DNA of 10,911 nucleotides from a virus (taxonomy: Duplodnaviria; Heunggongvirae; Uroviricota; Caudoviricetes), in IMG/VR virus record IMGVR_UViG_2541047120_000012; one strand, written 5' to 3'. A program made the position numbers and the translations under genes. The notes beneath the pieces are model-generated. The model did no database searches. It was not told the origin of the DNA and saw nothing but the letters and a program-made list of their open reading frames with translations. How positions within the stretch are numbered: position 1 is the first letter of the stretch; each line of letters opens with the position of its first letter. Of the stretch, positions 3,625 through 3,977 are shown in pieces.

Positions 3625-3867
3625 ATGGGCAAAGAATATAAAACTCTCATTAACAAAGCACCTGAACGATTTTATTTTCGCTTAAGTGCATCAGGCGCTC
3701 ATGCTGAACGTGCAGCCCGTGACTCATTGACCAGGGCAATCCGGAGTTTGTATGACGTTGCTTTTTACGCTGATGATCTGGATGCACTTAACGAACTTTC
3801 CGAGCTGATCTGTGCCGCAGAATGCGGGGAACACATTGAACCATATAAGCTGGGGAATATCGCATGA
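3625..3867 (+). CDS. Hypothetical early-operon protein, 80 aa
   Basis: RBS AAAGGG 8 nt upstream; stop overlaps the next start (ATGA). Confidence 0.5.
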   Translation: MGKEYKTLINKAPERFYFRLSASGAHAERAARDSLTRAIRSLYDVAFYADDLDALNELSELICAAECGEHIEPYKLGNIA

Positions 3868-3977
3868 GTATATTTATCTCATGGCTTGTTCTGATTATTT
3901 CGGTGGCCTGCGCCATTGGGATTATGCGAATTATTCATTCAGTAAAAAAGATTGAACGCTTTTTCACTGACAAATAA
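3864..3977 (+). CDS. Unannotated small single-pass membrane peptide, 37 aa (MSIFISWLVLIISVACAIGIMRIIHSVKKIERFFTDK)
   Basis: ATG overlaps the upstream stop (ATGA at 3864-3867); hydrophobic 20-residue core followed by a basic tail; not in the ORF track because of its length. Confidence 0.35.
   Translation: MSIFISWLVLIISVACAIGIMRIIHSVKKIERFFTDK

Follow-up and report, generated by a model that had tools for sequence, protein, structure and literature searches.

A small gene for a predicted single-helix membrane protein, coupled to DUF4754 in the putative early operon of a P88-like Escherichia coli prophage

We describe a 37-codon gene that occupies positions 3864 to 3977 of a 10,911-nt viral sequence (IMG/VR record IMGVR_UViG_2541047120_000012; hereafter the window, meaning this whole stretch of DNA) and overlaps the end of a gene for a DUF4754 protein. 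The window is a P88-like prophage, of the P2 family, of Escherichia coli O157:H7. Comparison with related elements supports the interpretation that this open reading frame (ORF) is a genuine, translationally coupled gene for a small membrane protein with a single predicted helix, located in what is probably the early operon of the prophage. We consider it very probable that the ORF is a translated gene: its conservation pattern is beyond chance, and it evolves under purifying selection that is specific to its reading frame.

Conservation and coding selection

Relatives of the window were gathered through the upstream DUF4754 gene, so that the sample is independent of the peptide itself. The sample consists of ten phage records; public assemblies with DUF4754 alleles 75 to 84% identical to that of the window; three divergent E. 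coli prophages; three contigs with a 41-amino-acid allele of the peptide (P0076); and 80 IMG/VR viral contigs. This gives a total of 113 homologous sequences, the window included. The small ORF directly follows DUF4754, with the stop and start codons overlapping as ATGA, in 112 of these, and is intact in 103, encoding either 37 amino acids or 41 amino acids with a KRRK-type extension. A sequence-only reading of the window had described a 37-codon ORF whose ATG overlaps the upstream stop codon, with which our reading agrees, and had proposed conservation of the frame and of the ATGA in relatives as a check. Even where DUF4754 is only 40% identical to that of the window, the frame, the junction and the upstream purine run are kept, so this check does not count against the gene.

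The remaining sequences carry altered forms of the gene. A −1 slip in a run of T residues produces a 45-amino-acid variant with a different tail in eight sequences (seven of the 80 IMG/VR loci and phage PhiR44_2), and the seven slipped IMG/VR alleles have several different downstream sequences. Phage Chuche has a stop at codon 31, and deletions in phage 503458 break both DUF4754 and the small ORF. By our own reading of the frames, the tails of alleles P0074 and P0075 result from a slip in a run of A residues. Slips at the A6 and T5/T6 runs have, in a minority of lineages, exchanged or cut short the part of the tail after residue 28 to 32. The frameshifted alleles are found on 1 to 16 contigs, compared to hundreds to more than 1000 contigs for each intact allele.

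The translational signals at the junction are also kept. A purine run (GGGGA, GGGAG, GGGAA, GAGGTGG or GGGGT) is present at the Shine-Dalgarno position in every allele, even when the C-terminus of DUF4754 differs. In a prophage of E. coli 2013C-3342 (L030, positions 1235 to 1268), the start of the small gene has undergone a 17-bp tandem duplication, with ATGAGTATATTTATCTC present twice. The duplication creates a 6-codon mini-ORF, and it is the TGA of this mini-ORF, not that of DUF4754, that overlaps the real ATG as ATGA. The stop/start overlap has therefore been rebuilt one step downstream.

An open frame of 37 codons is by itself no evidence for a gene, because the window contains about 128 ORFs of at least 30 amino acids and because the frame stays open by chance in 36 to 66% of simulations with random substitution at the observed divergence. 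The pattern of substitution is more informative. Over 45 distinct intact DNA alleles, the pooled Nei-Gojobori ratio of nonsynonymous to synonymous substitution rates (dN/dS) is 0.24, ranging from 0.20 to 0.24 across comparisons, versus 1.3 to 1.5 in four of the other five frames. The fifth, an antisense frame, has a dN/dS of 0.33 because it shares its wobble position with the small gene. An antisense ORF in that frame (3788 to 3916, minus strand) was considered as a conserved element and rejected, as it has lost its ATG or gained stop codons in most relatives. The variable sites of the 45 alleles are distributed 17/9/29 over codon positions 1, 2 and 3. In the most distant pairs, for which dS is approximately 1 and dN approximately 0.18, the synonymous excess is significant by Fisher's test (p = 4e-5 to 4e-4). 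Amino acid replacements are conservative (I/L/V/M, A/V and H/N/D), and 16 positions are invariant over the 45 alleles. Among intact alleles the tail is under the same purifying selection as the helix, with dN/dS of 0.24 for the tail and 0.22 for codons 1 to 24.

Recombination joints coincide with both ends of the gene. Two prophages (L032 and L034) share 50% of their DNA sequence in DUF4754 but become 100% identical at the ATGA and beyond it, and in many E. coli prophages homology to the window ends at positions 3978 to 3981, just past the stop codon of the small gene. Joints of this kind, placed at the boundaries of a gene, classically mark real genes in phages. The element is also widespread: it is present in 1384 of 5426 complete E. 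coli genomes, the exact peptide of the window occurs on at least 1000 contigs in a public protein collection, and records labeled as Salmonella, Shigella and Citrobacter phage are among the carriers.

Predicted structure of the peptide

The sequence-only reading had described a hydrophobic helix with a basic C-terminal tail, and this description is borne out by hydropathy, by the charge of the tail and by structure prediction. Among all 128 ORFs of at least 30 amino acids in the window, the peptide has the highest 19-residue hydropathy (Table 1). AlphaFold2 predicts one continuous helix over residues 2 to 35, with a mean predicted local distance difference test score (pLDDT) of 90. Two residues precede the transmembrane helix and 16 follow it, and the latter form a predicted amphipathic segment with a hydrophobic moment of 0.72 (p = 0.017 versus shuffled sequences). 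A cytoplasmic C-terminus is predicted from this basic amphipathic tail and from the positive-inside rule, applied to the difference between the two-residue N-terminal flank and the C-terminal flank. With no more than 50 amino acids, one transmembrane helix and no enzymatic domain, the protein has the architecture of small inner-membrane modulators. It also has one feature of type I toxins, in being a small hydrophobic single-helix peptide.

Table 1. Features of the small gene and its surroundings in the window
Feature	Position	Strand	Remarks
Promoter-like site TTGACA-17-CAAAAT	2460..2488	+	Between repressor and Cox-like genes; from a consensus scan alone
DUF4754 gene, full-length, 80 amino acids, predicted three-helix	3625..3867	+	Pfam 4.5e-53
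Shine-Dalgarno-like GGGGA	3852..3856	+	8 nt 5' of the ATG, within the last DUF4754 codons
ATGA start/stop overlap with DUF4754 gene (coupling junction)	3864..3867	+	ATG shares three bases with TGA
Small-protein gene, 37 codons plus stop, MSIFISWLVLIISVACAIGIMRIIHSVKKIERFFTDK	3864..3977	+	RefSeq WP_000021655.1; homologue of P88 gp07
Predicted transmembrane helix, codons 3-21, IFISWLVLIISVACAIGIM	3870..3926	+	Best 19 residues: Kyte-Doolittle mean 2.68, Hessa-scale sum -2.9 kcal/mol; AlphaFold2 helix
Basic amphipathic tail, codons 22-37, RIIHSVKKIERFFTDK	3927..3974	+	Net charge +3; predicted cytoplasmic
A6 run	3944..3949	+	Slip behavior like the T5 run
T5 homopolymer (T6 in some alleles)	3960..3964	+	-1 slip site
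Hairpin TCCGC-ATTC-GCGGA, 5-bp stem	4023..4036		In the 92-nt gap 3978..4069

Proposed function and alternative explanations

We favor, with moderate confidence, the interpretation that the 37-amino-acid protein is expressed early, adopts an N-out/C-in orientation in the inner membrane, and packs its helix against a conserved membrane partner to modulate an envelope process. The data establish the coding status of the gene, purifying selection on it, the architecture of the coupling, the hydrophobic helix and the lack of dependence on a particular DUF4754 allele; the timing of its expression, its topology, its binding to a partner and its phenotype are inferred. As the fifth gene of the putative Cox-side operon, it would be translated by ribosomes that finish DUF4754 and most likely re-initiate at the overlapping ATG, aided by the GGGGA run. 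If re-initiation holds, synthesis of the peptide would accompany that of the other early products upon induction or infection and would not take place in the repressed lysogen. It would then span the inner membrane once, with its two-residue N-terminus outside and residues 22 to 37 in the cytoplasm, and would act stoichiometrically through helix-helix packing, presumably without forming a pore. The partner is probably an inner-membrane protein of the host, which we consider a better candidate than DUF4754, and the expected outcome is modulation of an envelope process early in lytic growth.

Several observations are consistent with this model. Charged and strongly polar residues are absent from the helix; S6, W7 and S13 are invariant, and A17 and G19 nearly so. 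Within its module, the peptide shows the highest sequence identity between distant relatives: between the window and a prophage of E. coli JNEC-KY177 (L029), the peptides are 73% identical, compared to 40% for DUF4754 and 49% for DUF4761. The peptide is also independent of the DUF4754 allele. One peptide allele occurs unchanged after two DUF4754 types whose identity to that of the window is 39% and 81%, and conversely 28 peptide variants occur among 80 loci in which DUF4754 is 98 to 99% identical to that of the window. Because one peptide allele occurs with two DUF4754 types, no matched DUF4754 allele is needed, which points away from a matched phage partner and toward a conserved partner in the host.

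Other points weigh against this model. Variability leans to one face of the helix only weakly (p = 0.07 for the helix and 0.014 for residues 3 to 34 in a heptad arrangement; four tests, uncorrected), and the conservation of the membrane helix may reflect nothing more than a generic hydrophobic constraint. The tail is replaced in approximately 9% of the viral-contig sample and truncated in Chuche, and R22 is Q in some alleles; since it tolerates replacement and truncation, the tail may lack the role of a specific interface. A phage partner would likewise be compatible with the strict adjacency to DUF4754. Furthermore, the peptide belongs to a narrow enterobacterial family of P88-type prophages with no detectable relation, at the level of sequence, to any characterized protein. 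A HMMER search of 1.84 billion cluster representatives retrieved nine sequences at E ≤ 0.001, all of them variants of the peptide; profile searches of Pfam, NCBIfam, PHROGs and PADLOC matched zero families, and phmmer against all PDB chains found nothing. No paper mentioning WP_000021655 or DUF4754 was found in the literature, and papers on Xuanwuvirus, judged by title and abstract, appear unrelated; those found for CP-933T are unrelated as well.

One possible but rather unlikely interpretation is that the peptide is a dedicated early host-takeover factor, in which an invariant helix face binds and inhibits a conserved, possibly essential, inner-membrane machine of E. coli. Candidate targets would include the divisome, FtsH, an insertase or a transporter through which phage DNA enters. 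This interpretation would explain why the peptide is better conserved than its phage neighbors and why it is swapped freely between DUF4754 backgrounds.

Alternatively, the peptide could serve as an anchor for DUF4754, with its cytoplasmic tail recruiting the co-translated soluble protein to the inner membrane and the pair forming a functional unit. The peptide follows DUF4754 by an ATGA overlap in every locus, even in those that lack the middle gene between DUF4761 and DUF4754, and the acidic C-terminal half of DUF4754 (net charge −8) could complement the basic tail (+3). We nevertheless doubt this explanation, given the free exchange described above: the two DUF4754 types that precede the same peptide allele are just 50% identical as DNA and meet it at a recombination joint that coincides with the ATGA, and 28 variants stand behind nearly identical DUF4754 genes. 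In addition, the 41-amino-acid type carries far less net charge in its tail close to the membrane. A frameshift product that fuses DUF4754 to the peptide was also considered and is unlikely, because no slippery heptamer (X XXY YYZ) precedes the junction in the window or in the L016 and L029 types.

The sequence-only reading had named membrane depolarizers and division inhibitors as roles that such peptides often have; either role is possible for this one but unsupported. We think it improbable that the peptide damages the membrane in the manner of a type I toxin, a holin or YohP, oligomerizing and lowering the membrane potential for host shutdown or lysis timing. Its size and layout, with one helix and a charged tail, resemble those of Fst/Ldr-type toxins, and it contains the most hydrophobic segment of the window. 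The 27-amino-acid YohP reduces membrane potential (PMC12719787). However, the gene does not adjoin lysis genes; its neighbors are Cox-like, DUF4761, DUF4754, MarR and replication genes, unlike the context of a holin or lysis cassette. Nor does it stand alone with its own promoter, leader and antisense RNA, being coupled within an operon. We found no Rfam family over positions 3600 to 4100 and no promoter-like site on the minus strand over the ORF, although the lack of a consensus promoter counts for little by itself. Finally, the interior of the helix has no polar or charged residues of the kind that line depolarizing peptides.

Less probable again is a cell-division inhibitor acting on a membrane component of the divisome, the other role raised by the sequence-only reading, for which Fil of phage 186 would be the analogue by position and SidA of Caulobacter by architecture. 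The genes fil and dhr of 186 have an equivalent location, between the Cox/Apl-side regulators and the first intergenic terminator, and the peptide and Fil share a local resemblance (IMRIIHSVKK versus IIRIVHFVIK). This resemblance has a p value of approximately 0.04 against shuffled sequences, uncorrected for about seven comparisons, and of 0.53 for the L016 allele; moreover, Fil has no transmembrane segment (maximum Kyte-Doolittle mean of 1.26). Least credible of all is that the protein has no function, the ORF being a chance frame kept by hitch-hiking or one in which only translation matters (for example, by carrying ribosomes to the end of the module): that the frame is open is not in itself significant (P = 0.36 to 0.66), frameshifted and truncated tails exist and the family is narrow, but selection acts on the amino acids in this frame specifically, replacements among I, L, V and M and 16 invariant residues testify to constraint on the protein, intact forms vastly outnumber broken ones, and the competing antisense ORF loses its start or gains stops in relatives.

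Prophage and operon context

Over bases 3000 to 5000, the window matches many chromosomes of E. coli O157:H7 at 100% identity, and the closest phages are P88 and other members of Xuanwuvirus (Peduoviridae, P2 family). The equivalent region of E. coli strain TR01 adjoins yecA and shows the gene order in full: integrase, a DUF2511 protein, a hypothetical protein and a repressor-type regulator, followed on the opposite strand by a small DNA-binding (Cox-like) gene, DUF4761, a 92-amino-acid gene, DUF4754 and the 37-amino-acid gene. Further small genes lie 3' of the latter, before a 940-amino-acid GpA-type replication endonuclease. The arrangement of repressor, Cox-like gene and GpA-like replication gene is common to the window, P2 and 186, and because of this synteny with the early operons of P2 and 186 it is reasonable to regard the operon that holds the small gene as the early (Cox-side) operon. 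The promoter-like site between the repressor and Cox-like genes (Table 1) is a candidate for the early promoter of this operon, being placed like Pe of P2 and pR of 186.

The small gene adjoins the 3' side of DUF4754 in every locus examined and is the last gene of a module consisting of DUF4761, an optional gene of 84 to 95 amino acids, DUF4754 and the peptide; the optional gene is absent from L029, L032 and L033. AlphaFold2 models DUF4754 as three helices with a pLDDT of 72, and a fold search of the PDB and BFVD with this model gave no match at E < 0.001, only generic helical bundles. An apparent relation of DUF4754 to gpB of P2 was rejected as spurious, as the BLASTP match covers just 18 residues and the hhalign probability is 1.8%. 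One contig in which a DUF4754 protein 96% identical to that of the window precedes the 37-amino-acid gene is titled Vagococcus sp. WN89Y (L004), a Gram-positive bacterium, and is probably contaminated or a mislabeled assembly.

The gap that follows the small gene contains a hairpin (Table 1) with a variable loop. In 14 distinct relatives every base of its stem is paired (100%), and pairing has been preserved through two independent compensatory changes from C-G to U-A. The hairpin is kept even where the downstream gene differs, and it is from this point that downstream genes diverge between relatives. P2 and 186 have annotated terminators at the equivalent place. On the plus strand, the hairpin of the window is preceded by an A-rich run and followed by no T-run, and folding of the whole gap is no better than that of shuffled sequences (z = −1.1 and −0.5), so we rejected it as a plus-strand terminator; it is terminator-like on the minus strand alone, and within the gap support is confined to the 5-bp stem. 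A processing or stability element and an antisense terminator are candidate roles. In L029, the place of this gap is taken by a second hydrophobic ORF of 33 amino acids (1642 to 1743, MKNVKVILTIATAWVIFQVSALIWLALKNLGII), which starts 12 nt after the 41-amino-acid homologue of the peptide and is unannotated in that record.

Other parts of the window contain several further features. Positions 1 to 422 are the 3' end of an IS3-family insertion sequence, with rve and rve_3 transposase domains in the ORF at 9 to 380, and this element sits within the prophage integrase gene (423 to 997). The integrase frame matches the intact TR01 integrase over approximately 190 residues and then enters the insertion sequence. 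Because the insertion interrupts its frame, the integrase is disrupted in this copy of the prophage. Between the DUF2511 and repressor genes, a hypothetical protein of 216 amino acids (1380 to 2030, minus strand) has a strongly hydrophobic segment with a Kyte-Doolittle mean of 2.36 and no significant Pfam match, and may be a membrane protein expressed by the prophage from the lysogenic strand.

Two Rfam families score above their gathering thresholds, isrK (63 bits) at 5341 to 5415 and a C4-type antisense immunity RNA (78.5 bits) at 5451 to 5538, both on the plus strand and both within a 205-amino-acid ORF (5284 to 5901, plus strand). This ORF has a weak Pfam match to Phage_ASH and a match to phrog_995, and RefSeq places a 76-amino-acid "derepression protein" at 5595 to 5825 in a different frame (Pfam Derepression, 1.1e-07). 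The 205-amino-acid ORF may have been called in error, in which case the region would hold an RNA-controlled antirepressor module of the P1/P7/P4 type. Directly 3' of the replication gene lies a plasmid-type partition pair on the plus strand, at 9169 to 10128 and 10133 to 10447, consisting of a ParM/StbA actin-like ATPase (StbA_N 1.8e-82, ParM_N 3.5e-69) and a Plasmid_stab_B protein (7.7e-29).

Annotation status and significance

The sequence-only reading had presented the ORF as unannotated and likely to be missed by default annotation because of its length. Neither part holds. RefSeq/PGAP annotates exactly this ORF, with the same coordinates, as WP_000021655.1, a "hypothetical protein". The homologue in P88 (gp07, 94.6% identical) is named "membrane protein", that in vB_EcoM-569R5 "putative membrane protein", and the UniRef name is "Prophage membrane protein". 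Gene calls on public assemblies contain the ORF. When 40 rows were sampled at intervals from the ranked list of 1385 matching E. coli records, all except the last row had a PGAP "hypothetical protein" next to the DUF4754 gene. Omission is seen in three of the ten phage records (Shae_phiSM, 520873 and 503458), in the last of which the ORF is broken by deletion. The small ORF does not, therefore, qualify as a missed gene, since its product is already in databases under the names "hypothetical protein" and "membrane protein". Although well supported, it is an ordinary small membrane-protein gene that is already in public annotation. New here are the quantitative evidence for selection on the coding frame, the mosaic joints that flank the gene on both sides, the narrowness of the family, and the observation that no other protein of the module is conserved as well as the peptide, which can be exchanged between DUF4754 types.

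No component of phage early operons is less well understood than the small membrane proteins, and for P2-like phages the non-essential early genes are almost uncharacterized. The gene described here is short, clearly selected and present in approximately 25% of complete E. coli genomes, including O157:H7, and its carriage by P88 may offer a genetic system, provided that P88 can be propagated. These properties make the gene look tractable. If the target is a membrane machine of the host, the peptide would be a new and minimal phage inhibitor of 37 amino acids and, at the same time, a probe for that machine; if it is a host-takeover factor, about a quarter of E. coli genomes would carry such an inhibitor.

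Comparison with known systems

By position alone, the peptide is analogous to Fil and Dhr of phage 186, whose genes lie in the same slot, downstream of the Cox/Apl-side regulators and upstream of the first structured intergenic element and the replication genes. Both 186 proteins are small and non-essential; Fil prevents cell division when overexpressed, and Dhr is an inhibitor of host DNA replication. Unlike the peptide, Fil (75 amino acids) and Dhr (66 amino acids) have no transmembrane segment. We rejected homology between the peptide and Fil, as their best local alignment covers 10 residues at chance level (p = 0.03 to 0.05, and 0.53 in L016) and BLASTP of the peptide against Fil gave no match.

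Type I toxins such as Fst/Ldr, Hok, TisB and DinQ are similar to the peptide in having 30 to 50 amino acids, one helix and a charged tail. Their genes stand alone, under the control of a structured leader and an antisense RNA. In contrast, the peptide gene is coupled to the preceding gene in all relatives, and its product has no polar pore-lining residues. SidA, DidA, phage Kil, DicB and T7 gp0.4 are small proteins that stop host division and are made upon DNA damage or during phage development, and none is homologous to the peptide. SidA and DidA of Caulobacter are small membrane proteins, SidA having a single pass and 29 amino acids, whereas Kil, DicB and gp0.4 are not known to span the membrane. 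The superinfection-exclusion proteins T4 Imm, P22 SieA and HK97 gp15 are, like the peptide, phage-encoded and located in the inner membrane, and T4 Imm is made early in infection. These proteins are larger than the peptide, several have more than one helix, and many are expressed from the prophage, while the peptide gene lies in an operon that is expected to be repressed in the lysogen.

The closest architectural counterparts are AcrZ, CydX, MgtS, Blr and YohP, which, like the peptide, have fewer than 50 amino acids, a helix near the N-terminus, a short charged C-terminal tail and no catalytic domain. YohP alters the state of the membrane (PMC12719787). The AcrZ/CydX class showed no sequence similarity to the peptide in the phmmer and HMMER searches described above. 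The PDB chains searched presumably include the complexes of AcrZ and CydX. Members of this class are expressed from stress-induced chromosomal promoters, in contrast to a phage-borne gene in a putative early lytic operon. Most characterized small single-pass inner-membrane proteins act by binding a larger membrane protein. By analogy of architecture, we would place the peptide with AcrZ, CydX, MgtS, Blr and YohP, as a member of a class rather than of a homologous family.

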